A DNA stretch of 46,384 bases from Candidatus Doudnabacteria bacterium (GCA_963768175.1 CAVYGQ010000002.1:146284-192667), one strand, 5' to 3'. Positions 15,648-28,780 are shown, numbered from the stretch's first letter. Numbers and translations: made by a program. Notes: generated by a model from the letters alone, not told the origin.

Positions 15648-15659
15648 AAATCAATTAAC

Positions 15660-15688
15660 TTGCTAAAACCGCGGCCGCGGTTTATAGT
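15660..15688 (+). promoter_or_regulatory. Promoter of regulator R1 with palindromic operator in the spacer
   Basis: TTGCTA (15660-15665), 17-nt spacer, TATAGT (15683-15688). The 18-bp perfect palindrome AAACCGCGG|CCGCGGTTT occupies 15666-15683. Confidence 0.6.
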
Positions 15689-15701
15689 AGTAATATAATA
15701 T

Positions 15702-16232
15702 ATGTCCAGAAAATACGGAACTTTTGCCGGCGAGCTTTTAATTGCCATTGGTGAAGCCACGGGATTTTTTTCTTGGCCTCTTGAGTATACTGAATCATGG
15801 AGACGGAAGCAGTTGAGAGGTTATGAGAGTAAACGGATTTATGATAATCTGTACCGTTTTAAAACCCATGGTTTAGTAAGAGAAATTAGCCGGAACGGCA
15901 AGAAGTTCATTAAACTGACCTCTAAAGGACAACTGGAGTTGTTGCTCCATAAAGCTAAGTTGGAAAAACCCAAGGTCTGGGACGGGCACTGGCGGATGAT
16001 TGTGTTTGACATCCCGGAAGACAATCATAAAGATAGGGATAGGTTAAGGGAACTGCTTAAGAGAAATGATTTTGTCATGCTGCAAGCGAGCGTGTTTATT
16101 AGTCCTTATCCGTTAAACAGGGAGGCAATAGAGTATCTTAAACAAGCCGGCTTGAAAGAATATATAAGAATTATAAGGGCAGACGAACTTGATGATGATG
16201 GGGATTTGAAGAAAAAGTTTAATTTGAAATAA
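15702..16232 (+). CDS. PaaX-like transcriptional regulator R1 (winged HTH + Cas2-like ferredoxin-fold domain)
   Basis: 176 aa with ...GKKFIKLTSKGQLELL... then WDGHWRMIVFDIPEDNHKDRDRLRELLKRNDFVMLQASVFISPYPL. This fits the W.G.W..v.FdIPe..R..R..Lr..L....F..Lq.SV...P pattern of PaaX-family/Cas2-fold proteins. Confidence 0.75.
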   Translation: MSRKYGTFAGELLIAIGEATGFFSWPLEYTESWRRKQLRGYESKRIYDNLYRFKTHGLVREISRNGKKFIKLTSKGQLELLLHKAKLEKPKVWDGHWRMIVFDIPEDNHKDRDRLRELLKRNDFVMLQASVFISPYPLNREAIEYLKQAGLKEYIRIIRADELDDDGDLKKKFNLK

Positions 16233-16268
16233 TACTTCTTAAAACCGCGGCCGCGGTTTTAAGAAGTA
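16233..16268. promoter_or_regulatory. 36-bp perfect palindrome containing the R1 operator core, starting 1 nt after the R1 stop
   Basis: Reads TACTTCTTAAAACCGCGG|CCGCGGTTTTAAGAAGTA. It has the same geometry as the R1 promoter (TTCTTA, 17 nt, TTAAGA) and lies upstream of the glycerate kinase gene. Confidence 0.7.
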
Positions 16269-16304
16269 AGGGCTTATTTAATGTTTGTCCATGTTTGATT
16301 AAGT

Positions 16305-17669
16305 TTGCTTAGTGTTAGATTAGGTATGGGAACACGAACCAAACATATTATTACCAATTTTGATACTCTGGCGACCTCAAGCTTAAGGCGCCAGGCTTTG
16401 GAAATTACGGAAGCCGGGTTTCGGGCCATAAATACCAAACAGGCGGTAAAAAGAACGGTTAAATATAATCCCAAAAAGCAGGTGCTGGAAGTTGGCGGCC
16501 ATGAACCACTCACCGCAAAAGGTGGTTTGGGTACATGGCATGGGAAAAAATATTTGTTGAACGGTTTTGACCGGGTAATCTGCATTGGTTTTGGCAAGGC
16601 CGCTTTTAACGCGGTTTTAGAGCTGCAAAATATCCTTGGCGACAAAATAAAATGCGGGTTCGTGATAGATTTAAAACAGGGGTCTTTGGGCAATATTACC
16701 TGTAGGGTCGGTACGCATCCGTATCCGACAAAAATAAATATTGACGCCACCACAGAGCTGGTGGCCATGGTTTCGGACTGTACGGAAAAAGATTTGGTGT
16801 TGTGCGTAGTCAGCGGAGGCGGCAGCGCGCTTTTGTGCAGTCCCCACCAAATGAGCTGCGAGCAGGAAGTTTCTATTATTGCCGCGCTTACCGCCAAAGG
16901 CGCCAGCATTGGGGAATTAAACACCGTGCGAAAACATATCAGCAACGTCAAGGGCGGCAACTTGGCAAAAATAATGTATCCAGCCAGCGTGATAAGCTTA
17001 ATTTTCAGCGATGTGCCCGGAGACGACCTAAGCACGGTAGCTTCGGGGCCGACGGTGCCGGATGATACTTTTATGAAAGACGCCGCGGCGGTGCTGAAGA
17101 AATACAACGTGCTGGAGGCTTGCCACATGCCGTCCTGCCAGCTGGCTGAAACCCCTAAAGAGCCAAAATATTTTGAAAAAGTGCAAAATATTTTGGCGGT
17201 TTCGCCCAAGCAGGCTCTGGCGGCATTAAAGGATAGGGCGGAGGATTTAGGTTTTGACGTAAAAATATTTTCCACCCAGTTCCAAGGGCAGGCGCGGGAG
17301 CTGGGCCCAAAGATCATCGCGGCAAGCCAAAAGCGCCAGGCCTTAATAGGCGCGGGGGAGAGCACGGTTAAAATTATAGGCCAAGGCAAGGGCGGAAGGA
17401 ACCAGGAAATGGCGCTGGCGGCCTTGCCGTTTGTGGCCGAAAACCAGGTTTTGGTTTGCGCCGCTTCCGACGGCCACGACAACACGGACGCGACCGGGGC
17501 GATTGTGGATTTATCCACGCAAATTAAGGCCAAAAGCTTAGGCCTTGACGGTGAAGGCTATTTGCAAAATAACGACAGCTATAATTTTTTAGAAGCCACT
17601 GGCGATTTGCTGTTGACCGGCCCAACCGAAGCCAACGTGTCGGACTTTTTTGTTTGCCTGAAACAGTGA
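16305..17669 (+). CDS. Glycerate 2-kinase / hydroxypyruvate reductase-like (DUF4147 + MOFRL family)
   Basis: Shows CIGFGKAA, VVSGGGSALL, SIGELNTVRKHISNVKGG, IFSDVPGDD and GAGESTVKIIGQGKGGRNQE. The start is TTG 16305 or ATG 16326. Confidence 0.85.
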   Translation: MLSVRLGMGTRTKHIITNFDTLATSSLRRQALEITEAGFRAINTKQAVKRTVKYNPKKQVLEVGGHEPLTAKGGLGTWHGKKYLLNGFDRVICIGFGKAAFNAVLELQNILGDKIKCGFVIDLKQGSLGNITCRVGTHPYPTKINIDATTELVAMVSDCTEKDLVLCVVSGGGSALLCSPHQMSCEQEVSIIAALTAKGASIGELNTVRKHISNVKGGNLAKIMYPASVISLIFSDVPGDDLSTVASGPTVPDDTFMKDAAAVLKKYNVLEACHMPSCQLAETPKEPKYFEKVQNILAVSPKQALAALKDRAEDLGFDVKIFSTQFQGQARELGPKIIAASQKRQALIGAGESTVKIIGQGKGGRNQEMALAALPFVAENQVLVCAASDGHDNTDATGAIVDLSTQIKAKSLGLDGEGYLQNNDSYNFLEATGDLLLTGPTEANVSDFFVCLKQ

Positions 17670-17684
17670 AATGATTGAGGACCA

Positions 17685-17724
17685 TATCATAAAATTTGAC
17701 GGTCGTGAAATTTTATGATACATT
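17685..17724 (+). promoter_or_regulatory. Promoter of regulator R2 with palindromic operator
   Basis: TTGACG (17696-17701), 17 nt, TACATT (17719-17724). Inverted arms TATCATAAAATTT (17685-17697) and AAATTTTATGATA (17708-17720). Confidence 0.6.
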
Positions 17725-17760
17725 CACGGCAACTTTATAATCCCATAATTTTGAAGCGTT

Positions 17761-18279
17761 ATGCTCGCGACTTTTATTGATTTGTTTTTAGAGGCTTTAA
17801 CCGGTGAGCCGCATATGTACCCTCGTCCCTATGAGACCATGTATCATTTTGCCCAAAGGCTGAAAAAAATGAAGCGCCGGCAGTACTGCAGTACAGTGTG
17901 GCAAATGCGAAAACAGGGGTTGATTAGAATCACAATAAAAAATAACCAAAAATTCATCCAATGCACCAAAAAGGGACAACTGGAAATTTTGTTCAAAAAA
18001 GCGGTCTTAAAGAAACCCGCCCGCTGGGACGGCAAGTGGCGGTTAGCTGTTTTTGATATTCCGGAAAGAAGCAAGGACAAACGCAGTCTGTTAAGGGGAC
18101 TTCTAAAGAAAAATGATTTTTATAAGCTGCAAGCCAGCGTATACATAAACCCGCATCCTTTGAACAGGGAAGCGGTCAGGTATCTTAAGGAAAGCGGACT
18201 GATCGATTATATCCGTTTGATTAAGGTAGAGGAGATGGATAACGATAAGGATTTAAGGAAAAGGTTTAGACTGAAATAA
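17761..18279 (+). CDS. PaaX-like transcriptional regulator R2 (paralogue of R1)
   Basis: 172 aa with QKFIQCTKKGQLEIL... WDGKWRLAVFDIPERSKDKRSLLRGLLKKNDFYKLQASVYINPHPLNREAVRYLKESGL. Confidence 0.75.
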   Translation: MLATFIDLFLEALTGEPHMYPRPYETMYHFAQRLKKMKRRQYCSTVWQMRKQGLIRITIKNNQKFIQCTKKGQLEILFKKAVLKKPARWDGKWRLAVFDIPERSKDKRSLLRGLLKKNDFYKLQASVYINPHPLNREAVRYLKESGLIDYIRLIKVEEMDNDKDLRKRFRLK

Positions 18280-18320
18280 GTATCATAGATTTTAACGGCC
18301 GTTAAAATCTATGATACATT
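18280..18320 (+). promoter_or_regulatory. 38-bp perfect palindrome (R2 operator type) doubling as the promoter of the GT-A-like gene
   Basis: GTATCATAGATTTTAACGG|CCGTTAAAATCTATGATAC (18280-18317) starts 1 nt after the R2 stop. TTAACG (18292-18297), 17 nt, TACATT (18315-18320). Confidence 0.65.
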
Positions 18321-18381
18321 GATATTTCGCAGGCCATCCGCAGGCCAGTTTAATGCATTATATTTTAAAAGCGGAAAAATT

Positions 18382-19692
18382 ATGGCATCTGATTACATCC
18401 AAACTTATTTGTATTCGGTTTTAAAAGGGCAGGAAAGCTCGCTTATTGCCGAGCCGATGGAAAAGCAATGCCGCGTGGCGGTTTTGGCGCCGGTTTATGA
18501 AGAAAATTTTGAGGTGATTTTACAACTGCTTGATTCTTTGGCCAAACAGAAAAACATCAAGCCCAAAGAATTTGAAATGGTTTTGATTATTAACAACAGC
18601 AAAAAAGAGGCGGAAAATAAAACCCACGTTTTTAAAACCAATCAAAGCGCCATAAAACTAATCAAGTTTATTAAAAAGCTCGGACCAGCTCCCAAAGGTT
18701 TGCAGAGGCGGCAGCTGGAAACAATCAGAAACATCCAAAGCAGCGGAATTATCATCCATTTTATAGACAAATCTTCCGCGCAAACGGCTTATGAAATAAG
18801 CAATGTGGGCGTTGCCAGAAACCGCGGCGGCGCGGAAATCTGCCAAAGGTTTTTGTCGGTACCGGCCGGGGAAAAGGGGATTATTATGAACACCGACTGC
18901 GACTGCGCGCTTTCCCCGAATTTTATTAACGGGTTAAAAAATACGTTTGACCAATACAACGTTATTGCCGCTTTAGGGGATTTAAAGTTTGTTCCCGATC
19001 CCGCCTTTCCCGACCAGCGCCTGCTGAAGCAAGTGACCAAAGTCTGCGGCGGCAACGATGTGCGCGGCCTGCCCAAGAGCTTTTTGGTCAAGGGCAAAAA
19101 AGTTTATTTTGAAAAGAAAGACAAAATCAACCTTAGCCTGCTAAACAGCGGCCAGAATATTGCGGTGTTGGCCAAGACGCTGGCGCTGGCCGGAGGCTTT
19201 CCGCTTTATCCGACTTATGAAGATACGGCTTTCGGCCGGAGAGTTTCCCAATTGCCGGGCGAAGTGGCAAAGAACCTTAACCTTATGGTTACCACCTTGG
19301 CGCGGCCGTCCGAGCGCGCGGGGGTCTCCGCGTTCGGCCGAAAGCTCAAATCTGTTTTAGCTTCCATTGAGGAGTTCCGGCAGGGCCGGGCGAAAAAAAT
19401 TTATGTTTTTCACAAGCGCGAGACGGAAAAATTTTTGTATTACGCTTCGCGGTTGGCCAGGCAGGGGCAATTGGACGAGAAATGGCTGGAAGATTTATTG
19501 AAGGCTTTCCATTTTCGCCGCAAAGGGCTAACTGATGAACATTTAAAGGAAATTGTTGAGGTATTTAACCGCGAGTTTAAGCTGTTAGACAGCCAGCATA
19601 ATTTTGTCGGCATAAACGATATAATTGCTAAACATCTTTACCATCGGTTTCCCCAAAAAGACATTACCGCCAAATTTAAGGATGTTCTGTAG
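18382..19692 (+). CDS. GT-A fold (family 2-like) glycosyltransferase, tentative
   Basis: VAVLAPVYEENFEVILQLLDSLAKQ...MVLIINNS resembles the GT2 N-terminus, and NTDCDC is a DxD-like motif. ATG 18382 is preferred because the TTG at 18319 lies inside the palindrome/promoter. Confidence 0.5.
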   Translation: MASDYIQTYLYSVLKGQESSLIAEPMEKQCRVAVLAPVYEENFEVILQLLDSLAKQKNIKPKEFEMVLIINNSKKEAENKTHVFKTNQSAIKLIKFIKKLGPAPKGLQRRQLETIRNIQSSGIIIHFIDKSSAQTAYEISNVGVARNRGGAEICQRFLSVPAGEKGIIMNTDCDCALSPNFINGLKNTFDQYNVIAALGDLKFVPDPAFPDQRLLKQVTKVCGGNDVRGLPKSFLVKGKKVYFEKKDKINLSLLNSGQNIAVLAKTLALAGGFPLYPTYEDTAFGRRVSQLPGEVAKNLNLMVTTLARPSERAGVSAFGRKLKSVLASIEEFRQGRAKKIYVFHKRETEKFLYYASRLARQGQLDEKWLEDLLKAFHFRRKGLTDEHLKEIVEVFNREFKLLDSQHNFVGINDIIAKHLYHRFPQKDITAKFKDVL

Positions 19693-19800
19693 GCCTTTGT
19701 TTTTTGCGTGTAAAAACGCTTTGTTGCTAATCGCAACAGCTTACTGCCCTTGGCGTCATCCTTAAATCTTGAATCAGGTTCGGGGCAACAAAGGAGCATG

Positions 19801-19841
19801 GTATCATAGATTTTAACGGCCGTTAAAATCTATGATACGAT
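19801..19841 (+). promoter_or_regulatory. Third copy of the R2-type palindrome (38/38 identical to 18280-18317)
   Basis: Read directly. TTAACG (19813-19818), 17 nt, TACGAT (19836-19841). It lies between the GT-A-like gene and the Pro-rich surface protein gene. Confidence 0.6.
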
Positions 19842-19881
19842 ACCACGGAAACGGCCTCAATAGAATAATACGGCTAAAAGT

Positions 19882-19932
19882 GAGATTTTTTCCCTTTGGC
19901 TCCGCCTAGGGCCGGGATGACGCCGAGAGCGG
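19882..19932 (+). repeat. Solitary diverged copy of the 52-bp repeat unit found at 31949-32149
   Basis: gagattttttccctttggctccgcctagggccgggatgacgccgagagcgg compared with gagattcttccccttcgctccgctcagggtcagaatgacgccgag. Confidence 0.5.
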
Positions 19933-19954
19933 GGGGAAGAAAAATAATTTCAGT

Positions 19955-19982
19955 TTGACTATTTGGCCAAATATGCTTTAAT
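19955..19982 (+). promoter_or_regulatory. Promoter of the 20014 gene with a GGCC-centred palindrome in its spacer
   Basis: TTGACT (19955-19960), 16 nt, TTTAAT (19977-19982). The spacer begins with the perfect palindrome ATTTGG|CCAAAT (19961-19972). Confidence 0.45.
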
Positions 19983-20013
19983 TAAGGTATAGATTAATAT
20001 TTAAAGGACAAAA

Positions 20014-20709
20014 ATGTCTAACAAAAAAGGCAATAAATTTCACGAAAGGCATAATATGGAAAAAGCCACCATAAAACGCGTCAAGCGCAACAAAAAGCAC
20101 ATTTCAACCAAAGAAAAGATTATAGCCGGAGTGGGGGTTGGTTCTACTCTTTTAGGCGGCGGCATTGGGGTAGGAGGGGCAAAACCCTCTCCGTCGCAGG
20201 CAATGGTAAGCACCCAAAAAGATTCCAGTAACAACACAGCCGGCAAAATTAAAGATTTTCTAAAAAAGACTTTCGGCGTTCCCAAAGCCAAAGCCTTTAT
20301 GGACACCTCGGGGGTGTCGTCCTCTACCGGGGTTGATTTTGGTCAGATGTCAGGGAGTGCTGGGACTGGCATGTTGGGTTCATTTGAGGCGACAGGAGGC
20401 CCTTCAAACCCGGTTGTTTATTATGATTCCGGACAGCCAGCTCCCACTTCAGACACCCCACCCGCTGACACCCCACCCGCTGACACCCCACCCGTCGTCG
20501 TCAGTCTTCCCCCGGGCGTTCCTCCTGATTCTACGCTCAACCCCGATGACACTACTTGGACCGACCCAAAAACCGGGATTGTTTATGGGCCAGGCTCTGC
20601 TCCTGGTGATTATTTTGTTCCCGTGGATAACACCCCACCCGTTGACACCCCACCCACCGCTCCACCATCTGACCTTCCAGGTAATTTGATTGCGGTTTGC
20701 AAAATTTAA
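20014..20709 (+). CDS. N-terminally anchored Pro-rich surface protein (paralogue of the 23930 gene N-terminus)
   Basis: IKRVKRNKKHISTKEKIIAGVGVGSTLLGG matches IKRVKRGKKEITTKEKVLAGLGLGATLLGG of the 23930 protein. It carries TPPAD x3 repeats. Confidence 0.65.
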   Translation: MSNKKGNKFHERHNMEKATIKRVKRNKKHISTKEKIIAGVGVGSTLLGGGIGVGGAKPSPSQAMVSTQKDSSNNTAGKIKDFLKKTFGVPKAKAFMDTSGVSSSTGVDFGQMSGSAGTGMLGSFEATGGPSNPVVYYDSGQPAPTSDTPPADTPPADTPPVVVSLPPGVPPDSTLNPDDTTWTDPKTGIVYGPGSAPGDYFVPVDNTPPVDTPPTAPPSDLPGNLIAVCKI

Positions 20710-21695
20710 ATCCTCCTTCAGGATTAGGGCCAAATAGTACTTGGGAAGAGGTTGTATCACTAGTTGGTGCTGATAACGGAACAATATCACCAGACGGCAA
20801 TTCCGTATCCTATATTGATGAAAATGGTGACGAGATTATTTATACTAGGCAGGAGTGGGAGAGTGGTTTATATCCTGGGCAAACCCCATTCGGCGCTCCA
20901 CCCGCCCTACCCACCCCACCCACCGCCCCACCCGTTGTCAATCTGCCACCAACTGTCATACCACCCGTCGCCCCACCCGTTGTCAATCTGCCACCAACTG
21001 TCATACCACCCGTCGCCCCACCCGCCACCCCACCACCTGATGTCAACCTGCCCGGTAACCCACCGCCGGTAACTGACGGATCTAATGTGCAATCTGGTGT
21101 AACTGTTGGGAGTGTTCTTGCCGGTATAACCCCAATTGATACAAATAATGTTGTCCCTCCACCTGTTGTCCCTCCAGCTCCCATTCCCCTTCCTAAGCCA
21201 ACCGAGCCCGGGGGCGACAACACCCCTCCCGCTCCTGTAATTCTTCCTTCAGGTCTTCCTTCGCCAACCATTCCAGCAAGCGATACCCCAACCCCGGCTT
21301 CGGTTAACCCTACTACGGGCCTTCCTGTACCAACCGTTCCTGTCGATGAAGTTATCCCTCCCGTTAAAGTTGATCCACTTACGGGCCTTCCTGTACCAAC
21401 CGTTCCTGGGGACGACAGCCCGCCAACGATTTATCCGCCAGCTAAAACTCCGTCAAGCGGCGTATTAGGCGTAGTAAAAGCCGGTGAGGGCGTCTTGCAC
21501 AAACTTACAGGACGCGATGTTACTTCCCCTGCCAAAGCAGACGGCTCAACCCCGTCCAGCGGGTCGCCGTCTTCTCCCAGTGGCACGCCCAAAGCCCGCA
21601 CCCCCCAAATTCGCGGTTCAGGGTCAGGTTCCGGCGCAAAAACACCTAAAGTCAACCCCCGCGGGGGATCGGGCAAAATGACACCCCGCGAATAA
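20697..21695 (+). CDS. Pro-rich repeat protein, probably the frameshifted continuation of 20014..20709
   Basis: No signal or anchor of its own. It repeats the module (Pro-rich, then LNP..STW) seen in the upstream ORF. A 45-bp unit occurs twice (PPVVNLPPTVIPPVA). The ORFs overlap by 13 nt around the T-run at 20695-20697. Confidence 0.55.
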   Translation: MQNLNPPSGLGPNSTWEEVVSLVGADNGTISPDGNSVSYIDENGDEIIYTRQEWESGLYPGQTPFGAPPALPTPPTAPPVVNLPPTVIPPVAPPVVNLPPTVIPPVAPPATPPPDVNLPGNPPPVTDGSNVQSGVTVGSVLAGITPIDTNNVVPPPVVPPAPIPLPKPTEPGGDNTPPAPVILPSGLPSPTIPASDTPTPASVNPTTGLPVPTVPVDEVIPPVKVDPLTGLPVPTVPGDDSPPTIYPPAKTPSSGVLGVVKAGEGVLHKLTGRDVTSPAKADGSTPSSGSPSSPSGTPKARTPQIRGSGSGSGAKTPKVNPRGGSGKMTPRE

Positions 21696-21757
21696 TATCT
21701 ATAATTCGGTACGGCCTTATTGATGCTTGGTTATTAAGCTTGTGATATAATTGCCTT

Positions 21758-22078
21758 ATGGACAGAGCTGAAATGGAAAAACAAATTCAAGAAACAGCCG
21801 ACAGCATTGCCGGTGAATTTAAGCCGGAAAAAATTATTTTGTTCGGTTCTTGGGCATGGGGAAAGCCCGGTCCGGACAGCGATGTAGATTTGTTTGTAGT
21901 GAAGGACGCGGAAAATACCCGCCGTCTCGCGGGGGACATTAGGGGTTTTTTGTGGAAATCCAAAATGCCTATAGATATTATAGTTTGCAAGCCGGAGAAC
22001 ATTGATAAGAGTTTGAGCAAGGGCAATTTCTTTATCAGAAATATAGTATCCCAAGGAAAAATTCTGTATGAGCGATAA
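21758..22078 (+). CDS. Nucleotidyltransferase-domain protein (MNT-type antitoxin)
   Basis: Shows ILFGSWAWGKPGPDSDVDLFVV, the GS-x(n)-D-x-D minimal NTase motif. Confidence 0.8.
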   Translation: MDRAEMEKQIQETADSIAGEFKPEKIILFGSWAWGKPGPDSDVDLFVVKDAENTRRLAGDIRGFLWKSKMPIDIIVCKPENIDKSLSKGNFFIRNIVSQGKILYER

Positions 22079-22451
22079 TTCTTTTTATAAAGATTGGCTC
22101 AAAAAAGCTTCGGAAGACGAATTGTCTTTGAAAGCGGTTTTGGCGGAAGGCGCGCCCAGTACCGCCTGTTTTTTGGCCCAGCAGATGGCCGAAAAGCTCC
22201 TTAAAGCTCTGCTGGTTTATGGCGGCCGCGAATTTCCAAAAATCCACGACTTGGTAAAATTGGGCGAACTGGCGCAGGCTCTATACCCCGACGTGGTTGA
22301 ATTAAAGAAGGATTTGCAAACATTAAGCCAGTTTTATGTTGAGACCCGCTATCCGGCGGATAGCCCGGAGTTTACTGCCGGCGAAGCGCGGGAAGCTTTT
22401 GACATGGCGCAAAGGGTCAAGCTGTATGTAAATTCAAAAATCCCAACCTAA
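22068..22451 (+). CDS. HEPN-domain protein (toxin partner of MNT)
   Basis: Shows AQQMAEKLLKALL...KIHDLVKL...YVETRYP, a HEPN (PF05168-like) pattern. It overlaps the MNT gene by 11 nt. Confidence 0.8.
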   Translation: MSDNSFYKDWLKKASEDELSLKAVLAEGAPSTACFLAQQMAEKLLKALLVYGGREFPKIHDLVKLGELAQALYPDVVELKKDLQTLSQFYVETRYPADSPEFTAGEAREAFDMAQRVKLYVNSKIPT

Positions 22452-23456: not shown

Positions 23457-23469
23457 TACCGATATACTG

Positions 23470-23904
23470 ATGCATACAGATGATACTGATAATGCGGATA
23501 CCGGAAAACAAGGGTTAATGTATGAAGACCTGACTTTTATTATTAGAGGCGTTTTGTATTCAACTCACAACGAATTAAGATGTTACGCCAGAGAAAAACA
23601 GTATGGCGACGTTGCCGAAAGAATTTTTAAGGAGAAAAATATTCCTTATAAAAGAGAAGTAAGGATTGGCGATTCAGGAAATACGTTGGACTTCGTTGTT
23701 GACGATAAGGTATTGCTTGAGTTTAAAGCTAAGCGTATTATTACTAAAGAAGACTATTTTCAGACTCAAAGATATTTGCAGGAAACCGGTTTGCAATTGG
23801 CAATTTTGGTTAATTTTAGGGATAAATATATTAAACCCAAAAGGATTGTTCGGATAGAAAACTGGCAAAACAAGGATCAGTATTATCCGTATCATCCTCA
23901 TTAA
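23470..23904 (+). CDS. GxxExxY protein (PD-(D/E)XK-like, 23S IVS-associated family)
   Basis: Shows IIRGVLYSTHNELRCYAREKQYGDVAERIF...LDFVVDDKVLLEFKAK...LAILVNF. The likely true start is ATG 23518 (MYEDLT...). The first 16 and last ~10 codons read through the flanking word repeats. Confidence 0.7.
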   Translation: MHTDDTDNADTGKQGLMYEDLTFIIRGVLYSTHNELRCYAREKQYGDVAERIFKEKNIPYKREVRIGDSGNTLDFVVDDKVLLEFKAKRIITKEDYFQTQRYLQETGLQLAILVNFRDKYIKPKRIVRIENWQNKDQYYPYHPH

Positions 23905-23929
23905 TCCGTATATCAGTATCATAACTTTT

Positions 23930-25186
23930 ATGAAACCAAAAGTATCCCCAAAAAAACTCAAACCCTCTAAACATTCACATCGCAATTCTATGGACAAAGT
24001 TAAAATAAAACGCGTGAAGCGCGGCAAAAAAGAGATTACGACCAAAGAAAAAGTTTTGGCTGGGTTGGGGCTTGGCGCCACTTTGCTTGGCGGAGCCGCA
24101 GCGGTATCCGCCCAGCCGGAAACCACCGAGTTCGTCAAGGCGCAGACAACCGAGGAAGGCAGCGCGACAAAAAAGGCCAAAGGCTTGTTAACGGATGTTT
24201 TTGGGGTAGGAACAGCCCATGCGGCAGGGCTGTCCGGCAAAGCTTTATCCCCGAATAAAATCCCGTCTTTTATTACCGGACCGGCTAAGTATTATAAACA
24301 GTCAGATATCGTGACCTCAGATTCTTCCGATGACAGTGATGTGGAAGGAGTAGATTCGGGAGATGTTGTCACTCCAAATATTGTCACCCCAAATGTCGTT
24401 ACTCCAACTTCTGATGACAGTGATGTGGAAGGAGTAGATTCGGGCGCTGTCGTTACTCCTCCAGCTAACGATGACAGTGATGTGGAAGGAGTAGATTCGG
24501 GAGATGTTGTCACTCCAAATATTGTCACCCCAAATGTCGTTACTCCAACTTCTGATGACAGTGATGTGGAAGGAACAGATTCGGGAGATGTTGTCACTCC
24601 AAATATTGTCACCCCAAATGTCGTTACTCCAACTTCTGATGACAGCGATGTGGAAGGAGTAGATTCGGGTGCTGTCGTTACTCCTCCAGCTAACGATGAC
24701 AGCGATGTGGAAGGAGTAGATTCGGGTGCTGTCGTTACTCCTCCAGCTAACGATGACAGCGATGTGGAAGGAGTAGATTCGGGTGCTGTCGTTACTCCTC
24801 CAGCTAACGATGACAGCGATGTGGAAGGAGTAGATTCGCAGGCTAGCCAGCCAGTCCAGGGTTATGCCGGCGTGGAAAGCATGGCTGATGTTTCAGGCCT
24901 GCAAATGCCGGCCGGGTATTTAGCTTCGTCGGGTTCTCCCCTGGACGTGCAGGCGCCGGATGCCGAAGTGGAAGACTTGGCTGGAGCGGCAGACGTGGCC
25001 GCGGAGGGTTCGCTGGGCAATTATACGGTCAAGGGCGGCGATAATTTGTGGAATATCGCGAAAAAATATTACGGCGACGGCCGTAAGTGGCGCGTTATCT
25101 TGGCAGCTAATCCGAACTGTTTAAGCCGGCCGGGTGATACTCATACCTTAAAAATCGGCGCGCAATTAGTCATCCCAAAAATATAA
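23930..25186 (+). CDS. N-anchored acidic tandem-repeat surface protein with C-terminal LysM domain
   Basis: Anchor LAGLGLGATLLGGAAAV. LysM reads YTVKGGDNLWNIAKKYYGDGRKWRVILAANP...LKIGAQLVIP. Confidence 0.8.
   Translation: MKPKVSPKKLKPSKHSHRNSMDKVKIKRVKRGKKEITTKEKVLAGLGLGATLLGGAAAVSAQPETTEFVKAQTTEEGSATKKAKGLLTDVFGVGTAHAAGLSGKALSPNKIPSFITGPAKYYKQSDIVTSDSSDDSDVEGVDSGDVVTPNIVTPNVVTPTSDDSDVEGVDSGAVVTPPANDDSDVEGVDSGDVVTPNIVTPNVVTPTSDDSDVEGTDSGDVVTPNIVTPNVVTPTSDDSDVEGVDSGAVVTPPANDDSDVEGVDSGAVVTPPANDDSDVEGVDSGAVVTPPANDDSDVEGVDSQASQPVQGYAGVESMADVSGLQMPAGYLASSGSPLDVQAPDAEVEDLAGAADVAAEGSLGNYTVKGGDNLWNIAKKYYGDGRKWRVILAANPNCLSRPGDTHTLKIGAQLVIPKI
24329..24838 (+). repeat. Coding tandem repeats: 84-bp unit A (DDSDVEGVDSGDVVTPNIVTPNVVTPTS) and 57-bp unit B (DDSDVEGVDSGAVVTPPAN), order A B A A B B B plus a partial unit
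   Basis: Read directly. The early units use gacagtgat, and the fifth and later units use gacagcgat. Confidence 0.9.
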
Positions 25187-25222
25187 AAACAATAATTATT
25201 ATTAAGAATTAAAAAAACGCAT

Positions 25223-27268
25223 ATGAATAAAAAGATTAAGTGTATTTCTCCGGCAAAAAAGCAGGCTTTTTTGCCGCGCCTGCTTAAGGCCAAAGCAAGT
25301 TTCGCTATTGCCTTAAGTTTTGTGCTGTTTGCAACCGTGGCCGGCAGCAGTATTTTTAAGGCCAAAGCCTTAACTATGGACGAACTTCAGGCCGCCTCAT
25401 CCCCACAGGTTTTAGGGGCGACTAATTCTGGTACTAATTACGTAACCGTGCCCAATGGCCAGACGGCCTGTCCCAATATTAGTTTCACTCCCGCACAAGC
25501 GACCGCCGGCGGAGTGGTGGGTACGCTGGGACCCGGTCATGTAACTTCCGATGGTGCACCCAACATCGTCCTTTACGCCCAGCCATTATCTACGACATAC
25601 ACCGGCCCCGCCGCTTACAACCCATATTTTAATACGGGGCCCGTCAAAGGTTTTAGCAATTGGTTTACACCGTGGGCGACATCAACCTTTGAGGGGACAG
25701 TTCCCTTCCTTAATCCTGAACCTCCGAACGCTACCGCGGAGGGCGCGGCCGAGGCCTTGCGCCTGGTGGACCTTTACGCTCCCGGATCAAAGATTGCGAC
25801 CGAGCCGACTGGCATAACAGGGGTAGAGCCGCCCATCAGCCTTGTTGAAATTATTCTGCCCGCCGGCACTAATGCCAACGGCACTATATATCTAGACGCA
25901 AGCGGCATCCTTCAATACTATTATAATGGTGGAGAAGTACAAAGCTATTACGATTACAATAATTCAACGGGGGTGGATTCAATCTCCGACCGGATATTGG
26001 AACAGACGGTGCTGGGATGCACGTATTTATCAACAACCGACCAAATCCCATTAGCGTCCTCCACAAAACTTCCTGACGCCGTTTGGAAAGGAGGTTACGG
26101 GAGCACCATAGTGTTGGCAAACGGAGATTCTGCCCAGATCCAGGGCATTGATCCCGTTTCCGCGCAATGCGAGGGCAAGTTGGCAAACGAAAACAGTGCA
26201 GACCCGTATCGGTACGTAGCTTGGATTGCTACCTGGGAGTACGTTCCGGAAGGCGAGGATCCGTCGCTGGGGAAGAATTGGGTTCCGATTACAGACAGTT
26301 CTCTGATTACCCCGTCAATGAAAGCGGTGCTTCCGCTGGCGCAGGAGTTGCTGAATGAAGAGGCGGCGAGCTCCAATGTCATTGGTGGGGGCAGCTGGTA
26401 TAAAGGAGCCCTTACAGCATTCGTCCCCGGAACCACCAAGCTGGATTGGTTTACCTGGACACAATTGGGCGTGCAGGGAGGCGGCGCCGGACCGGTTCTT
26501 TGGCCGGCATCGGTTCAAGGCATGACCTTTGACAAATGGGATGGTACGGTTATGTCCCAGGCCGATTTGGAAGCCAGGGCTTTTGCGGCAGCCGGAACGG
26601 TTCCAAACGGCTCTAACGCCGCCGCGGATTTGGCGGCGGGTAAATACAGCCTGCCGACGAATACGTCAAAAACGCCGCAGCAATTTGAACTTCCGCTCCC
26701 GCCGGCATCGTGCTATGCCGGATCGGGCCAGCCCGCGCAGTCCTTAACTTGTGCCACCCCGGCTATTTCAGCCAACATTGGCAATCCTGTAACTTTCAGC
26801 GCCTTAGGCGGCATTGCCCCTTATTCCTGGAGCGGCGGGGAAAATCCCGCCACTAGCACCGGTTCCAGCTTTACCACCAGTTATTCCACAGCCGGCAACA
26901 AAACCGCCACAGTTTCCAGCCAAGACGGCCAGAATGCCAGTTGTAGTGTAACCATCACTTCTACCGGCACGCCAGGCACTTACCCCACCGTTACCATTAC
27001 CTCTGCCACCAACCTTTCTTTAAAGGTTACCGCTACCCCGCTGTCCTACGACAGCACCGCCGGAGCATGGACTTATCAGATATACTGGAAGAGAACCCGC
27101 AATGCCCAGGGTTCTTTGTATGTCACCCTAAAATCCGACAAGACCCAGGTCTTACTAACCGTTGACCCAGCCAGCCAAACCGGCACCCAGATTGTTACCT
27201 TGGCTCCTCCACCGCCTACCGCGTGGAATTTTACACCCAGCCTGCCAAAGGCGGTAACTTACTACTAA
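25223..27268 (+). CDS. N-anchored secreted protein, hypothetical (PKD-like segment near the C-terminus)
   Basis: Anchor FAIALSFVLFATVAGSSIF. The segment ISANIGNPVTFSALGGIAPYSWSGGENP...GNKTATVSSQDGQNASCSVTI is PKD-like. Confidence 0.65.
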   Translation: MNKKIKCISPAKKQAFLPRLLKAKASFAIALSFVLFATVAGSSIFKAKALTMDELQAASSPQVLGATNSGTNYVTVPNGQTACPNISFTPAQATAGGVVGTLGPGHVTSDGAPNIVLYAQPLSTTYTGPAAYNPYFNTGPVKGFSNWFTPWATSTFEGTVPFLNPEPPNATAEGAAEALRLVDLYAPGSKIATEPTGITGVEPPISLVEIILPAGTNANGTIYLDASGILQYYYNGGEVQSYYDYNNSTGVDSISDRILEQTVLGCTYLSTTDQIPLASSTKLPDAVWKGGYGSTIVLANGDSAQIQGIDPVSAQCEGKLANENSADPYRYVAWIATWEYVPEGEDPSLGKNWVPITDSSLITPSMKAVLPLAQELLNEEAASSNVIGGGSWYKGALTAFVPGTTKLDWFTWTQLGVQGGGAGPVLWPASVQGMTFDKWDGTVMSQADLEARAFAAAGTVPNGSNAAADLAAGKYSLPTNTSKTPQQFELPLPPASCYAGSGQPAQSLTCATPAISANIGNPVTFSALGGIAPYSWSGGENPATSTGSSFTTSYSTAGNKTATVSSQDGQNASCSVTITSTGTPGTYPTVTITSATNLSLKVTATPLSYDSTAGAWTYQIYWKRTRNAQGSLYVTLKSDKTQVLLTVDPASQTGTQIVTLAPPPPTAWNFTPSLPKAVTYY

Positions 27269-27696
27269 GAAAGTTCTTTACCACTATAGCCGCACCTTTA
27301 GTATCTTCCGGCAGCGGCAATTCAATCTGCAGCACTCTTTGGTGGGCTAATTTCATGCAGACTCCGAGAAGCTGTTTCCAGATGCAGTACTGCGGTGTTT
27401 CCAACCAGTCGGAAACAGTCGTAAGCCCGTCGAGCGGGGACCAGTATACTAACCCGACGCTCAATAACATGGAGATCTTTCTGTACAACTCGGAAAGCGC
27501 CTGCAAGGCGAGCATCGCTTCCGGCAATGGCAATCCAAACTGTGCCAATCTCTGGTGGCGCAATGGCGGCTCCCTTAGTTTTCATAGCTGTTCCTTGTTG
27601 CGGTTCTGTGGCACTATACCTAAGGAGGTACAAACCTTTTCATCACAAGCAGCTTGCAATTCCAGTCCTTTTGTCAGCCCATCCAGCAGTGGTTAA
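27223..27696 (+). CDS. Cys/Trp-rich two-repeat module, probably a frameshifted C-terminal extension of 25223..27268
   Basis: An internal duplication supports coding: GSGNSICSTLWWANFMQTPRSCFQMQYCG versus GNGNPNCANLWWRNGGSLSFHSCSLLRFCG. It has no signal peptide of its own and overlaps the upstream ORF by 46 nt. Confidence 0.5.
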   Translation: MEFYTQPAKGGNLLLRKFFTTIAAPLVSSGSGNSICSTLWWANFMQTPRSCFQMQYCGVSNQSETVVSPSSGDQYTNPTLNNMEIFLYNSESACKASIASGNGNPNCANLWWRNGGSLSFHSCSLLRFCGTIPKEVQTFSSQAACNSSPFVSPSSSG

Positions 27697-27858
27697 AATA
27701 TACCGATCGGGGTTTGCCACATACCCAGCCAGGCGGAAAATGGCATTTGGGATGCCAAACTTTGTCCTACGGCAAAACTACAGGCTCTGACGGCAGTAAA
27801 CTAACTGCCCTTGTGAACGTTTCCGTAAAGTAAATACGCATTAGAATTATAATTACAA

Positions 27859-27893
27859 CCCCGCCCCTCGACTTCGCTCGGGGCGGGGTTTTT
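27859..27893 (+). terminator. Intrinsic terminator
   Basis: CCCCGCCCC-tcgacttcgctc-GGGGCGGGG followed by T5. Confidence 0.75.
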
Positions 27894-27926
27894 GTTGGTG
27901 GCCGACAGCAGTTAGTTGCAGGGTTT

Positions 27927-27960
27927 GTTGACAATTTGCGCGGCCGCGCATATAATCAAC
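27927..27960 (+). promoter_or_regulatory. Consensus promoter of regulator R3 with palindromic operator in the spacer
   Basis: TTGACA (27928-27933), 17 nt, TATAAT (27951-27956). The 14-bp perfect palindrome TGCGCGG|CCGCGCA lies at 27937-27950. Outer GTTGA/TCAAC extend it to an imperfect 34-bp palindrome. Confidence 0.7.
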
Positions 27961-27982
27961 ATGTAATATTTAGCTATAATGT

Positions 27983-28468
27983 ATGCGCTTAAGGAACTAT
28001 CCCCAAAATTTTTTACTCTTTGCTTTCATTGATGGCTTGAAAGCGGCTTTTGCGACGAAAAACGAATGGAGATCTGTAAAATACCCGGGTTCCTATAATC
28101 AGTACCGACAAACGGCCTATCATTTGCGGCGCAAAGGTTATGTAAAAATCGTTATAAATCCTTCCGGAAAAAGATTTTTGCAGCTGACGCAAAAGGGGGA
28201 GCTCGAGTTATTGATGGCTAAAGCCTGGCTGCGTAAAGTTCAGGTTTGGGACGGGAAATGGCGGATGGTTATTTTTGACATTCCGGAAGAAGCAAATGAA
28301 AAACGCGATAAATTGCGCAGACTGTTAAAAAGTGGTGGCTTTTTTAAACTCCAGGCCAGCGTCTATGTGAATCCTTATCCTTTGAACCGCGAGGCGATTC
28401 ATTATTTAAAAAAGACAAGGTTGACAAGGCCATTAAAATGTGCCATTATATTAGGTCAATTTAATTGA
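27983..28468 (+). CDS. PaaX-like transcriptional regulator R3 (paralogue of R1/R2, shorter divergent C-terminus)
   Basis: 161 aa with GKRFLQLTQKGELELL...WDGKWRMVIFDIPEEANEKRDKLRRLLKSGGFFKLQASVYVNPYPLNREAIHYLKK. Confidence 0.75.
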   Translation: MRLRNYPQNFLLFAFIDGLKAAFATKNEWRSVKYPGSYNQYRQTAYHLRRKGYVKIVINPSGKRFLQLTQKGELELLMAKAWLRKVQVWDGKWRMVIFDIPEEANEKRDKLRRLLKSGGFFKLQASVYVNPYPLNREAIHYLKKTRLTRPLKCAIILGQFN

Positions 28469-28510
28469 TATATATGTTGGTTAAACCAATAAAAATCAGC
28501 GTTTTCAGCC

Positions 28511-28551
28511 AAAAACCGGCTTCTTAAACTTTTGTTTGGGGGCCGGTTTTT
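28511..28551. terminator. Hairpin terminator (A-run/T-run on both sides)
   Basis: AAAAACCGGC (28511-28520), 21-nt loop, GCCGGTTTTT (28542-28551). Confidence 0.55.
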
Positions 28552-28598
28552 AGCGTTTAAATGGGATTTTGCGGATAGAAATTTGTCCATTCTGTATT

Positions 28599-28688
28599 GT
28601 TGATTTTTTGCGCGCCTATTTGCGCGCCTATTCGATAAACTCAGGCGCCCTGAGCCATGCCGAATGGGCGGCCGCGCAAAAAATCAAC
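28599..28688. promoter_or_regulatory. R3-type palindrome split by a ~56-58-nt insert
   Basis: GTTGATTTTTTGCGCG (28599-28614) and CGCGCAAAAAATCAAC (28673-28688) are perfect inverted arms. The right side keeps the GGCCGCGC core. The insert contains a 12-bp tandem duplication (tgcgcgcctatt x2) and the hairpin CTCAGG-cgc-CCTGAG. It is followed by atcaac x3. Confidence 0.6.
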
Positions 28689-28780
28689 ATCAACATCAAC
28701 AATTATGGCCAATTTTCTCTTCGTAAGCCACTTGTTGTATTGGTGGTTTTCAAGAGCAGTCCGAATGGAGGAAGTTAGCA

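Follow-up and report, generated by a model that had tools for sequence, protein, structure and literature searches.

Small PaaX-type proteins bracketed by private palindromes: candidate autorepressor modules in Candidatus Doudnabacteria

We consider it reasonably probable that three paralogous genes (R1, R2 and R3) in a 46,384-nucleotide stretch of DNA from a Candidatus Doudnabacteria bacterium (GCA_963768175.1 CAVYGQ010000002.1:146284-192667; hereafter, the window), and their homologues in related genomes, are self-contained autorepressor modules with private operators, the operator copy at the 3' end of each gene being most likely a protein-occupied boundary. This reading is based on the anatomy, conservation and arm privacy of the palindromes that bracket the genes, the overlap of the upstream copies with promoter-like sites, the covariation between protein residues and operator bases, and the presence or absence of the modules among relatives. 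No description of this bracketed architecture was found in the literature searched.

All three open reading frames (R1, 15702..16232; R2, 17761..18279; R3, 27983..28468; all on the plus strand) are present in the window and encode proteins of about 175 amino acids (176, 172 and 161, respectively) in which a wHTH domain is fused to a Cas2 fold. Profile searches and structure prediction bear out the PaaX-like assignment made in the first-pass annotation, without PaaX_C. Each protein matches the PaaX_M family (E-values from 1e-19 to 1e-22), no PaaX_C match was obtained in the Pfam profile search, R1 and R3 pass the cut-off of TIGR01573, and the scores against TIGR02277 (29-36 bits) are far under the cut-off of 264.55. 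The AF2 model of R1 (pLDDT 79.8) contains a wHTH followed by a beta-alpha-beta-beta-alpha-beta domain; its top Foldseek match is E. coli PaaX (8a39; E = 3e-5, TM 0.51), and the C-terminal domain matches type II-A Cas2. The FDIPE..R...R segment aligns by profile to Cas2, and D103 within FDIPE corresponds to the catalytic-position aspartate of Cas2 and is invariant in the R family, so that nuclease activity of these proteins is possible. No sensing domain was identified in R. Overall, R appears to be a small protein of the PaaX type, composed of a winged-helix domain, a linker helix and a Cas2-fold domain, that would function as a repressor.

The R1 locus agrees with the earlier description of a 17-nt promoter spacer holding a perfect palindrome, with a second palindrome behind the stop codon. 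The predicted upstream operator (15657..15692) has a perfect core (15666-15683) inside a promoter-like site (15660-15688) that matches the consensus, between TTGCTA (15660-15665) and TATAGT (15683-15688), and the predicted downstream operator (16233..16268), a 36-nt perfect palindrome (TACTTCTTAAAACCGCGG/CCGCGGTTTTAAGAAGTA), directly follows the stop codon. The window contains AAACCGCGGCCGCGGTTT at exactly two places, 15666 and 16242, a count that none of 100 shuffles attained. The outer positions of the upstream operator resemble those of the downstream copy except under the promoter hexamers. The specificity residues of R1 are H109 and D113 (codon 16038-16040, plus strand).

For R3 (N109, D113), whose C-terminal tail is both shortened and divergent, the predicted upstream operator (27926..27961) consists of outer arms TGTTGA and TCAACA around the core TGCGCGG/CCGCGCA (27937-27950), and the promoter-like site (27928-27956), TTGACA (27928-27933) and TATAAT (27951-27956), matches the consensus at 12 of 12 positions, with TGCGCGGCCGCGCA in its 17-nt spacer; a palindrome filling this spacer was part of the first-pass annotation. 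The downstream copy that it reported is present but disrupted (predicted operator 28598..28689): the core (28665-28678) carries one mismatch, and the left outer arm (28598-28614) is displaced by about 58 nt from the core and right arm (28665-28689), the gap containing a 12-nt tandem duplication (28607-28632).

The R2 locus (K109, S113), located between the glycerate kinase and GT genes, departs from that description. Its predicted upstream operator O1 (17685..17720) is an imperfect palindrome that differs from the downstream copy at several positions, and the -35 hexamer of the consensus-matching promoter-like site, TTGACG (17696-17701) at a 17-nt spacing from TACATT (17719-17724), falls within the left arm of O1, so the perfect palindrome in the R2 promoter spacer did not hold up. 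O1 is centred on CGGTCG instead of the CGGCCG ascribed to all three genes. The downstream copy O2 (18280..18317; predicted) is a 38-nt perfect palindrome (GTATCATAGATTTTAACGG/CCGTTAAAATCTATGATAC) as claimed, and a third predicted copy that had been overlooked, O3 (19801..19838), is identical to O2 and lies after the GT gene, 176 nt before a Pro-rich gene. Homologues at the R2 position, after glycerate kinase, are found in two relatives (L028 and L029).

Bracketing of these genes by their own palindromes is not limited to the window. The comparison set included about 70 relatives, with 60 homologues, mostly from Candidatus Doudnabacteria, used for the bracket counts. A CGGCCG-centred palindrome is located 17-140 nt before the start codon in 46 of the 60 homologues, such a palindrome is found near the stop codon in 45 (its centre lying between 6 nt inside the coding sequence and 144 nt past the stop), and 37 have both; a copy on one side was undetected in 14-15 of the 60. 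In a census of perfect palindromes over 57 genome loci and the window (about 380 kb), with a minimum arm length of 6 nt, CGGCCG leads all other centres by a wide margin, with 102 cases compared to 23 for the runner-up. When arms down to 5 nt are admitted, there are 114 CGGCCG palindromes, and 92 of these are within 150 nt of an R homologue. The arms are private to each paralogue, as previously suggested, with an identity of 0.74 between cognate copies versus 0.43 between paralogues of the same genome.

When the two cognate copies of a gene are compared, identity runs from 1.0 to 0.78 at positions -1 to -7, amounts to 0.51-0.65 at -8 to -12 and 0.73-0.86 at -13 to -16, and reaches background past -19. 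The predicted half-site accordingly comprises a near-invariant CGG core, an inner box (-1 to -7), an A/T-rich linker (about -8 to -12) and an outer box (about -13 to -18), the two boxes being common to both copies of one gene and not to paralogues. The best reading of these patterns is that the private operator would be two-fold symmetric and 36-44 bp long. The linker is 84% A/T, being A-rich in 13 and T-rich in 7 of 59 long-armed copies. In many short-armed upstream copies, the inner and outer positions are symmetric and the linker is not; the arm mismatches in such copies (8 G:T, 7 A:C and 26 others) show no wobble bias.

The protein and the operator covary at one position in particular. Among the 54 genes tabulated, Asp113 is accompanied by C at operator base -5 in 28 of 29 cases and a non-Asp residue by a non-C base in 23 of 25 (Fisher p = 6e-12, permutation p = 5e-5). 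On the tree, residue 113 has switched between D and non-D about 14 times independently, residue and base switch together in 22 of the 25 closest contrast pairs, and all 11 cases outside the table (ten new loci and L015) agree. Residue 113 is located in the first helix of the Cas2-like domain, where R112 and R116 are invariant and positions 109 and 113 are variable; the base at -5 is C for Asp113, G or A for Asn and A for Glu, and the base at -4 is A for Arg109. The three R genes directly upstream of glycerate kinase differ as these pairings predict: H109/D113 with CCGCGG in the window, R109/N113 with TGACGG in L058, and R109/D113 with TCACGG in L153. Covariation between the proteins and the arms, which had been expected in the wHTH recognition helix, is therefore found with its peak elsewhere; what remains for the wHTH and N-terminal region is a weak correlation of its identity with that of the outer box (r = 0.15, p = 0.0005-0.001), whereas the identity of the whole Cas2-like domain shows no correlation with the outer box. 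Protein and site co-evolve, and, given that residue 113 tracks base -5, we infer that the R proteins bind their palindromes. Amino acid-base chemistry, together with the covariation, suggests a direct contact between residue 113 and base -5; an indirect effect of this residue on DNA reading is also possible.

The palindromes might instead function mainly as RNA hairpins (terminators, processing sites or stabilizers) that are alike through duplication rather than through recognition by R. They are located at gene ends, their stems are long and perfect (mean RNA MFE about -23 kcal/mol), and long perfect upstream copies are associated with a co-directional upstream gene (21 of 22, compared to 16 of 23 for the short ones; Fisher p = 0.047). 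Moreover, 17 pairs have long perfect arms in both copies; at 51 of their 298 positions the two copies disagree, always with a mirrored change in the opposite arm. Dimer contacts alone leave these mirrored changes unexplained; at non-conserved positions, they call for either a hairpin or cruciform requirement or correction of quasi-palindromes by template switching, a known mutational mechanism. Nevertheless, the hairpin explanation appears extremely unlikely. The repeated, independent switching of residue 113 with base -5 is hard to account for without protein recognition, and the promoter-embedded copies retain the boxes while losing linker pairing, with mismatches that are not biased to wobble pairs. 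Furthermore, a T-tract follows the downstream palindrome in only 7 of 37 cases, a canonical terminator, GC-rich and with a T-run, is present in the same genome (27866-27890), and no Rfam family matches the region.

The two copies differ in their relation to promoters, called here as matches to a sigma-70-like consensus. A promoter-like site with at least 9 of 12 matches overlaps 22 of the 46 upstream copies compared to 5 of 46 in the reverse-strand control, the -10 hexamer starting 6-8 or 16 nt past the palindrome centre (by the count of the script), so the overlap originally noticed for R1, R2 and R3 extends to the family. Only 1 of 38 downstream copies has such a site. It is thus quite unlikely that the downstream copies serve as promoter operators for the genes that follow, each R controlling an adjacent glyco/surface gene as a small regulon, although the next gene is co-directional in 46 of 58 cases, the R2 operator recurs after both R2 and the GT gene, ahead of Pro-rich genes, the O1 spacing is preserved in O2 and O3, whose -35 hexamer (TTAACG) is weaker, and a few loci (L014, L035, L040) contain cognate sites 1-3 kb away. 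No perfect palindrome can combine a good -35 with a good -10 hexamer, and six of the downstream copies face a convergent gene. The neighbours across the family are varied, unrelated housekeeping genes (NhaP, CysRS, FtsX, FtsA, SecA, HisRS, OTCase, glycerate kinase), and glycerate kinase, the GT and 2-hydroxyacid dehydrogenase are kept in relatives that have neither R nor the palindromes. Control of glyco and surface functions, as proposed in the first-pass annotation, is accordingly not borne out.

Alternatively, the downstream copy could be an auxiliary operator without any boundary function, with R oligomers looping the intervening ~590 bp to tighten autorepression. Looping by two-operator repressors such as LacI, GalR and DeoR is well established, the gene has sites of the same specificity on both sides, whose distance varies rather little (median 592 bp), and the downstream copy, which has no promoter, is usually perfect and the better of the two. 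However, this distance is mostly a product of gene length and shows no helical phasing (Rayleigh p = 0.25-0.5), looping would require tetramerization, for which there is no support, and extra identical sites around other genes (O2/O3 around the GT gene; L015) would be left unexplained; we consider this possibility unlikely. Gene orientation provides hints of a boundary role: in addition to the bias of the long upstream copies, of 46 cases in which the next gene is co-directional, 37 have a downstream copy, versus 6 of 12 in which it is convergent.

The genes and their sites appear to come and go together. In L061, L062 and L029, the same flanking genes are directly adjacent or overlapping, with neither R nor a palindrome between them, which indicates that the gene plus its sites is one module that is gained or lost as a unit, in agreement with the cassette organization proposed initially. 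Presence/absence polymorphism at two intergenic positions of one conserved gene block, the occurrence of R1-like proteins in differing gene contexts, the identity of some brackets over 38-42 nt including the linker (O2/O3, L015, L048) and the invariant Cas2 catalytic-position aspartate could also be taken to imply mobile cassettes, in which recombination or integration would take place at the palindromes, with the wHTH-Cas2 protein helping to cut or join DNA there. That the modules are such elements is very unlikely because the empty sites lack a palindrome, and hence any target-site footprint, and several modules keep their synteny over many genomes as operators and protein diverge locally: NhaP-R-CysS is present in 9 genomes, and R adjoins glyK in the window, L058 and L153. 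Searches yielded one weak match in IMG/VR and no plasmid match, the neighbours examined included no recombinase or Cas1, and we know of no Cas2-fold nuclease that recombines DNA.

Among known systems, the best structural match of R is PaaX (E. coli, Pseudomonas; 8a39, 3l09; PaaX_N/PaaX_M/PaaX_C), a phenylacetyl-CoA-responsive repressor that binds TGATTC(N27)GAATCA and autorepresses transcription from Px by sterically hindering RNA polymerase (PMC9493321). Shared features are the N-terminal wHTH followed by a Cas2-like middle domain, the widely spaced inverted repeats (about 39 bp in PaaX) and, presumably in R, occlusion of its own promoter. Unlike PaaX, R has about 175 rather than about 310 amino acids, lacks the PaaX_C effector domain and has no paa genes nearby; its operators add a near-invariant CGGCCG centre and an inner box covarying with the Cas2-like domain, there is one copy on each side of the gene, and several paralogues with private operators coexist in a genome. 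With Cas2, especially that of type II-A, R shares the ferredoxin-like fold, the F-D-x-P motif in beta1 with its conserved Asp, and basic residues of the first helix that align with R112 and R116. In contrast to Cas2, R carries a fused wHTH, no CRISPR array was found in the window and no cas1 among the neighbours examined, and the equivalent helix appears to read bases, whereas Cas2 in Cas1-Cas2 complexes touches the DNA backbone without sequence specificity. C-proteins of restriction-modification systems and toxin-antitoxin (TA) antitoxins are likewise small DNA-binding proteins with a symmetric operator in their own promoter, and paralogous systems hold distinct operators that avoid cross-talk. 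R differs from these in its fold, in the absence of a partner toxin or enzyme gene from the module, in the second operator at the 3' end of its own gene, and in an operator twice as long with two boxes per half-site.

Taken together, these comparisons suggest a module with the layout operator plus promoter, R, operator, in which a symmetric dimer of R would bind each two-fold-symmetric operator. The exposed face of the first Cas2-like helix (R112, R116 and residues 109 and 113) would directly contact the bases of the core and inner box, the outer box probably being read by the wHTH and N-terminal region with a spacing as in E. coli PaaX. Because the upstream copy overlaps the -35/-10 hexamers, bound R would occlude RNA polymerase and so repress its own transcription. 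We infer the role of the 3' copy, be it boundary, roadblock or loop; in what is the least certain step, this usually perfect, promoter-free copy may be a 3' boundary, acting as a roadblock helped by an RNA hairpin, that limits transcription leaving the module, while perfect upstream copies may limit transcription entering it. The protein and both operator copies co-evolve in place, which would prevent cross-reaction among the paralogues of one genome, and whole modules are gained or lost between housekeeping genes.

The three genes annotated in the first pass as PaaX-like regulators are present in the window on the plus strand (R1, 15702..16232; R2, 17761..18279; R3, 27983..28468), and the proposed winged helix-turn-helix (wHTH) plus Cas2-fold identity of their products, proteins of about 175 amino acids, is upheld by Pfam, an AF2 model and structure matches alike, with the PaaX effector domain missing. 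All three contain the PaaX_M domain (PF20803, 'PaaX central Cas2-like domain'; E = 1.4e-22, 6.6e-20 and 2.7e-19, all above the 24-bit cut-off). Neither PaaX_N nor PaaX_C gave a Pfam match in R1-R3, and the proteins stop after the Cas2-like domain, with a short C-terminal tail in R3. The PaaX equivalog model (TIGR02277) scores them at 29-36 bits against a cut-off of 264.55, covering about 31-155 of its 279 positions, whereas with the Cas2 model (TIGR01573, cut-off 24.5 bits) R1 (28.8) and R3 (32.8) are above and R2 (21.3) is below the threshold, in matches confined to about 40 residues (beta1, alpha1). The AF2 model, computed from an alignment of 82 homologues (pLDDT 79.8), consists of helices 8-18 and 31-38, a recognition helix (43-55), a beta-hairpin wing (59-72) and a linker helix (74-87) followed by a beta-alpha-beta-beta-alpha-beta domain, so that the N-terminal wHTH is predicted to have the PaaX arrangement. 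The best structure match in the PDB is E. coli PaaX (8a39; E = 3e-5, probability 1.0, TM 0.51 over 177 columns), followed by Rv0674 (3kfw) and 3l09; the C-terminal half of the model matches type II-A Cas2, and a profile search of PDB sequences aligned 'lvifDiPeearekRd...klRklL' with a Cas2 segment.

Homologues of these proteins are found in Patescibacteria, chiefly in Candidatus Doudnabacteria, with several paralogues per genome; an exhaustive profile search returned 72 representatives at E <=1e-30 and 3,725 at E <=1e-10 (50% identity clusters). Many are annotated as 'CRISPR-associated endonuclease Cas2', a name that is misleading for these genes. The flanks in the examined loci are housekeeping genes rather than cas1 or CRISPR arrays, no paa genes occur among the examined neighbours, a PADLOC search for defence systems gave partial Cas2 matches and nothing else, and the 46-kb window contains no CRISPR-like array. 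A 52-nt tandem repeat at 31946-32149 (3.9 copies, 96% identity), which overlaps the small ORFs 31749-32054 and 32051-32290, is not such an array because it has no spacers.

Each R gene in the window is associated with its own palindrome. For R1, the 46 kb contain the 18-mer AAACCGCGGCCGCGGTTT at just two positions, 15666 and 16242 (two matches were obtained in 0 of 100 shuffles), the second occurrence being included in a 36-nt perfect palindrome that begins directly after the stop codon (16233-16268). For R2, the two bracketing copies reported in the first pass are there, but a third was overlooked: the 38-nt palindrome after the stop codon (18280-18317) recurs identically at 19801-19838, between a glycosyltransferase (GT) gene and a Pro-rich protein gene. 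The copy upstream of R2 (17685-17720), which had been described as perfect, is a degenerate version with the centre CGGTCG. The R3 upstream copy is located in the spacer of a promoter with a 12/12 match to the consensus, and its downstream copy has one mismatch, is split by about 58 nt and adjoins a 12-nt tandem duplication. A consensus promoter scan recovers the sigma70-like promoter with a 17-nt spacer claimed for each gene (R1, TTGCTA-17-TATAGT; R2, TTGACG-17-TACATT; R3, TTGACA-17-TATAAT).

Several other palindromes were identified in the window. A small GGCC-centred palindrome, TATTTGGCCAAATA (19960-19973), with the core TGGCCA rather than CGGCCG, lies about 40 nt ahead of the Pro-rich gene (20014) and shares 1 nt with the end of the hexamer TTGACT (19955-19960). 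It resembles the palindrome-in-promoter-spacer design, with a weak -10 hexamer, and could be the site of another R-like paralogue; the fetched locus L021 has a GTGGCCAC core. A different perfect palindrome with the centre GGATCC, TTTCCGCCAAAGGCGGA|TCCGCCTTTGGCGGAAA (8012-8045), lies just upstream of ORF 8058-8324 and is nearly identical in the metagenome relative L060 (about 2664-2699), where it precedes a small membrane-protein ORF; these may form a second conserved palindrome family, possibly another operator. The perfect palindrome with 19-nt arms at 39322-39360, ACAAAGAGACTCTTTGCGC|GCGCAAAGAGTCTCTTTGT, between the convergent genes 33230-39313 (+) and 39365-39904 (-), is probably a bidirectional terminator.

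The bracketed arrangement is typical of the family. We fetched 57 genome loci and located the homologue in each, for a total of 60 genes. In 39 of the 60, the 200 nt before the gene and the 250 nt after it have an exact word of at least 12 nt in common, and this word is nearly always an xxxCGGCCGxxx palindrome. CGGCCG is the centre of 102 perfect palindromes in these loci, compared with 23 for the runner-up centre; such copies are found upstream of 46 genes, downstream of 45 and on both sides of 37. Upstream copies typically have their centres 17-60 nt before the start codon; downstream copies begin at or even over the stop codon, with perfect arms of mostly 17-22 nt. Across about 380 kb, 92 of the 114 palindromes that have a CGGCCG centre and arms of 5 nt or more are located at most 150 nt from an R gene, and only 8 long-armed copies are away from R genes. 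This clustering, together with orthologous sites that lack both the gene and any palindrome, does not fit dispersed elements of the REP/RAYT type, and generic repeats or terminators unrelated to gene position, which the first-pass annotation had named among the outcomes that would refute its interpretation, do not account for the distribution.

The arms are private to each paralogue, as had been noticed for the three window genes: arm identity is 0.74 between cognate copies, that is, the two flanking one R gene, 0.43 between paralogues of the same genome and 0.39 between genomes. The difference between modules of the same genome also does not fit Xer/dif-like (pdif) sites, which would have the same recombinase-binding arms throughout a genome. 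Counting bases outward from the palindrome centre, cognate identity is 1.0-0.78 at positions -1 to -7, 0.51-0.65 at -8 to -12 and 0.73-0.86 at -13 to -16, and falls to background past -19, whereas in non-cognate pairs it is 0.25-0.59 from -4 outwards. From this high-low-high profile, we infer a half-site of three parts: the CGG core with the adjoining inner box, then a linker, then an outer box. A/T pairs make up 84% of the linker, which is A-rich in 13 and T-rich in 7 of 59 long-armed copies; the outer boxes are 24-26 bp apart, and the whole site spans 36-44 bp and, upstream, overlaps the promoter.

Variations on this arrangement were also observed. On the contig of P0063 (locus L145, 1501-2025 plus flanks), a family member in which residue 113 is Phe and Glu106 is replaced by Leu has flanking palindromes centred on CAG|CTG (AAATCACAGCTGTGA...), a natural variant of the otherwise near-invariant CGG|CCG core. 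Elsewhere, cognate or identical putative operators (L015, 2763-2802 and 4014-4053; L035, 1861, 2875 and 3627; L040, 6337; L014, 135) enclose R together with at least one additional small gene or are found at a distance of 1-3 kb, so the bracketed unit is not always R alone.

Several observations bear on whether the palindromes act as duplex DNA or as RNA hairpins. Many upstream copies with short perfect arms are symmetric at the inner and outer positions and asymmetric in the linker, the hallmark of a symmetric site for a protein on double-stranded DNA; the mismatches in these copies (8 G:T, 7 A:C and 26 other) do not show the G:T wobble bias expected of an RNA hairpin. A T-tract, here at least 5 T within the next 8 nt, follows only 7 of 37 long downstream palindromes, and a canonical terminator elsewhere in the window, at 27866-27890, differs from the R palindromes in appearance; as a group, the palindromes thus do not look like intrinsic (rho-independent) terminators. 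No Rfam family was detected in 15000-29500 at E values up to 1. In the 17 pairs with long perfect arms in both copies, the two copies disagree at 51 of 298 positions, each time with a mirrored change in the other arm. Such mirrored changes are outside what dimer contacts explain and call for either a structural requirement for a hairpin or cruciform, or quasi-palindrome correction by template switching.

The two copies differ in their relation to promoters. A promoter-like site matching at least 9 of 12 consensus positions is found at 22 of 46 upstream copies (5 of 46 on the reverse strand, used as control) and at 1 of 38 downstream copies (control, 3 of 38), which suggests that operator and promoter are combined in the upstream copies and that the downstream copies have no promoter function. 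In the upstream copies, the predicted -10 element starts, by the count of our script, either 6-8 nt past the centre, so that the palindrome falls within the spacer (the case of R1 and R3), or 16 nt past it, in which case the inner arm TTSACG forms the -35 element as in R2. Because the upstream copy overlaps the -35 and -10 elements, we propose that R represses its own promoter, and a self-contained autorepressor module, with R presumably bound as a dimer to its long symmetric operator, is the best-supported reading. PaaX acts in this way at its own Px promoter, through an operator of similar width, TGATTC-N27-GAATCA (PMC9493321), in which two 6-bp inverted repeats are about 27 bp apart. Unlike R, PaaX has the C-terminal phenylacetyl-CoA effector domain PaaX_C and a linkage to paa genes. 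On this model, an R dimer would present four reading heads to four successive major grooves: two Cas2-like helices might contact the core and inner boxes and two wHTH domains the outer boxes, with the A/T-rich linker between these contacts.

This division of labour can be compared with protein-operator covariation. The first-pass annotation had pointed to the recognition helix as the likely partner of the arms, which holds in part. Identity in the wHTH (residues 44-75) and the N-terminal region shows a weak correlation with that of the outer box (r = 0.15, p = 0.0005-0.001), also after controlling for the Cas2-like domain, whereas wHTH and inner box were uncorrelated in a Mantel test (r = 0.02), a null result that shifted the focus to single columns and the Cas2-like domain. 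In the column scan, residue 113, which belongs to this domain, shows by far the strongest association with the inner box (r = 0.32, permutation p = 5e-5), followed by residue 109. For the outer boxes, which are nearly all unique and of uncertain register, the scan yielded only weak column correlations (residues 5, 37 and 52). Residues 109 and 113 map to the exposed face of the first Cas2-like helix, within the motif F-D-I-P-E-x-x-[109]-x-x-R112-[113]-x-x-R116, in which R112 and R116 are invariant in all 82 aligned sequences.

The correspondence between these residues and the inner box is simple. Asp113 occurs with C at -5 in 28 of 29 cases and non-Asp residues with a base other than C in 23 of 25 (Fisher p = 6e-12), the base being G or A for Asn, A for His and Glu, and G for Ala. 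At -4, the base is A in 27 of 28 cases with Arg109, A or G where residue 109 is Lys, and T or G where it is Asn or Ser. A tree computed with these columns left out shows about 14 changes of the Asp/non-Asp state, and in 22 of the 25 closest contrast pairs the base class switches as well; for example, the L007 (Asn, TGACGG) and L009 (Asp, TCACGG) proteins are 74% identical and encoded in common synteny. The rule extends to proteins from contigs that had not been used before and to locus L015, all outside the 54-gene table: three Asp proteins (P0059, P0040 and P0012) have C at -5, and all eight non-Asp cases (P0011, P0081, P0044, P0033, P0073, P0061, L058 and L015) have another base. The operators of R genes directly upstream of glycerate kinase likewise differ as the rule has it (window, H109/D113, CCGCGG; L058, R109/N113, TGACGG; L153, R109/D113, TCACGG). 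These sequence comparisons provide strong evidence that the R proteins recognise the palindromes; for a reading of the inner box by the Cas2-like helix, the evidence is suggestive. The autorepressor model already includes the proposal that the Cas2 fold would serve here as a genuine DNA-binding head that reads bases by a simple residue-to-base code, for which we consider the balance about even.

The flanks of R genes are varied housekeeping genes at conserved syntenic positions. The arrangement Na+/H+ exchanger - R - CysRS is conserved in nine genomes; other settings include FtsX - R - pyridine-nucleotide oxidoreductase, FtsA - R and glycerate kinase - R - 2-hydroxyacid dehydrogenase, and SecA, HisRS and OTCase are further neighbours. 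A scan of metagenome glycerate kinase loci revealed a backbone of a 449-aa protein and glycerate kinase followed by GT and 2-hydroxyacid dehydrogenase in either order. Within it, the window, L058 and L153 carry the R1-type module, which is missing from L061 (the closest relative, with 79% kinase identity; 140-nt gap), L062/63 (16-nt gap), L029 (the genes overlap) and L068/69. An R2-type module occurs in the window, L028 and L029 but not in L061, L062, L064 or L065. At the sites without R, no CGGCCG palindrome was found, not even a single leftover copy, which indicates that the palindromes are part of the R module rather than of the neighbouring genes, and that the module is acquired or lost in one piece. 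A dedicated regulon for glycan and surface functions, as first envisaged, fits poorly with both the varied flanks and this independent presence and absence.

The surroundings of the window modules show further differences. The 2-hydroxyacid dehydrogenase gene directly follows glycerate kinase or R in L061, L062 and L029, and GT alone intervenes in L068/69; in the window, the stretch 18319-22451 includes extra DNA between GT and this gene (22452). The extra DNA encodes two Pro-rich repeat proteins (20014-21695) and a putative nucleotidyltransferase/HEPN-like pair recognised by sequence motif (21758-22451), and it starts shortly past the third putative R2 operator. A gene for a 987-aa secreted repeat protein (28781-31744), just downstream of the disrupted putative R3 operator, has a GC content of about 58-62% compared with about 45% around it and was probably acquired horizontally. 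AT-rich intergenic regions at 12325-12429 and 13839-13931 contain short repeated motifs such as TTTTTGTCATT or ATTGACAA in imperfect inverted and tandem repeats, and similar clusters fill the 'empty' intergenic site of L061 (3380-3490).

The patchy distribution of the modules, the identity of some brackets and the invariance of the Cas2 Asp103 might be taken to indicate mobile cassettes. We consider this very unlikely, given that synteny is stable, that protein and operators co-evolve in place, that empty sites carry no footprint and that the family is nearly absent from viral and plasmid collections: a single weak relative in IMG/VR and none in the plasmid collection, so that it is apparently not carried by phages or plasmids. 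Also very unlikely is a self-mobilising form, in which the protein would recognise its own palindrome in a sequence-specific manner and the retained Cas2 active-site Asp would nick or join DNA there, a Cas1-independent, Cas2-based insertion system.

For the 3' copy, we favour the role of a boundary, a roadblock plus hairpin that would limit transcription across the module edges. This preference rests on the downstream copy being the better site, free of a promoter and found whichever way the next gene runs, on its higher frequency before a co-directional next gene (37 of 46) than before a convergent one (6 of 12, among 58 neighbours), and on the position of long perfect upstream copies behind a co-directional upstream gene in 21 of 22 cases, compared with 16 of 23 for short ones (p = 0.047). 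DNA looping between the two copies, which would tighten autorepression, is a serious alternative; no signal of helical phasing was seen in the spacing of the two operators.

The domain family is already known (PaaX_M in Pfam), repression through a promoter-embedded palindrome is ordinary, and the R modules are classified here as a variant of PaaX-type repressors. In the literature searched (PaaX with Cas2, winged helix and Candidate Phyla Radiation taxa), nothing links such proteins of these bacteria with such sites. What appears to be new is the family-wide operator bracket, the two-box half-site with private arms around a common CGGCCG centre, the presence/absence behaviour of the module and, above all, a specificity residue in a Cas2-fold domain that follows a simple residue-to-base rule.

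The module is compact, with promoter, repressor and two operators in about 650 bp, and modules are mutually orthogonal within a genome and naturally situated between housekeeping genes, which makes them candidate orthogonal repressor/operator parts. To our knowledge, the transcription factors of the Candidate Phyla Radiation are almost unstudied; here, some 70 natural protein/operator pairs yield a readable rule in which residue 113 tracks base -5 and residue 109 base -4. The Cas2-fold domain is usually seen as a dimerisation or scaffold module. If confirmed, the rule would make the Cas2 fold a new sequence-reading DNA-binding head, with consequences for how the roughly 40-bp reach of PaaX-type repressors is understood and for how Cas2 relates to DNA-binding proteins.
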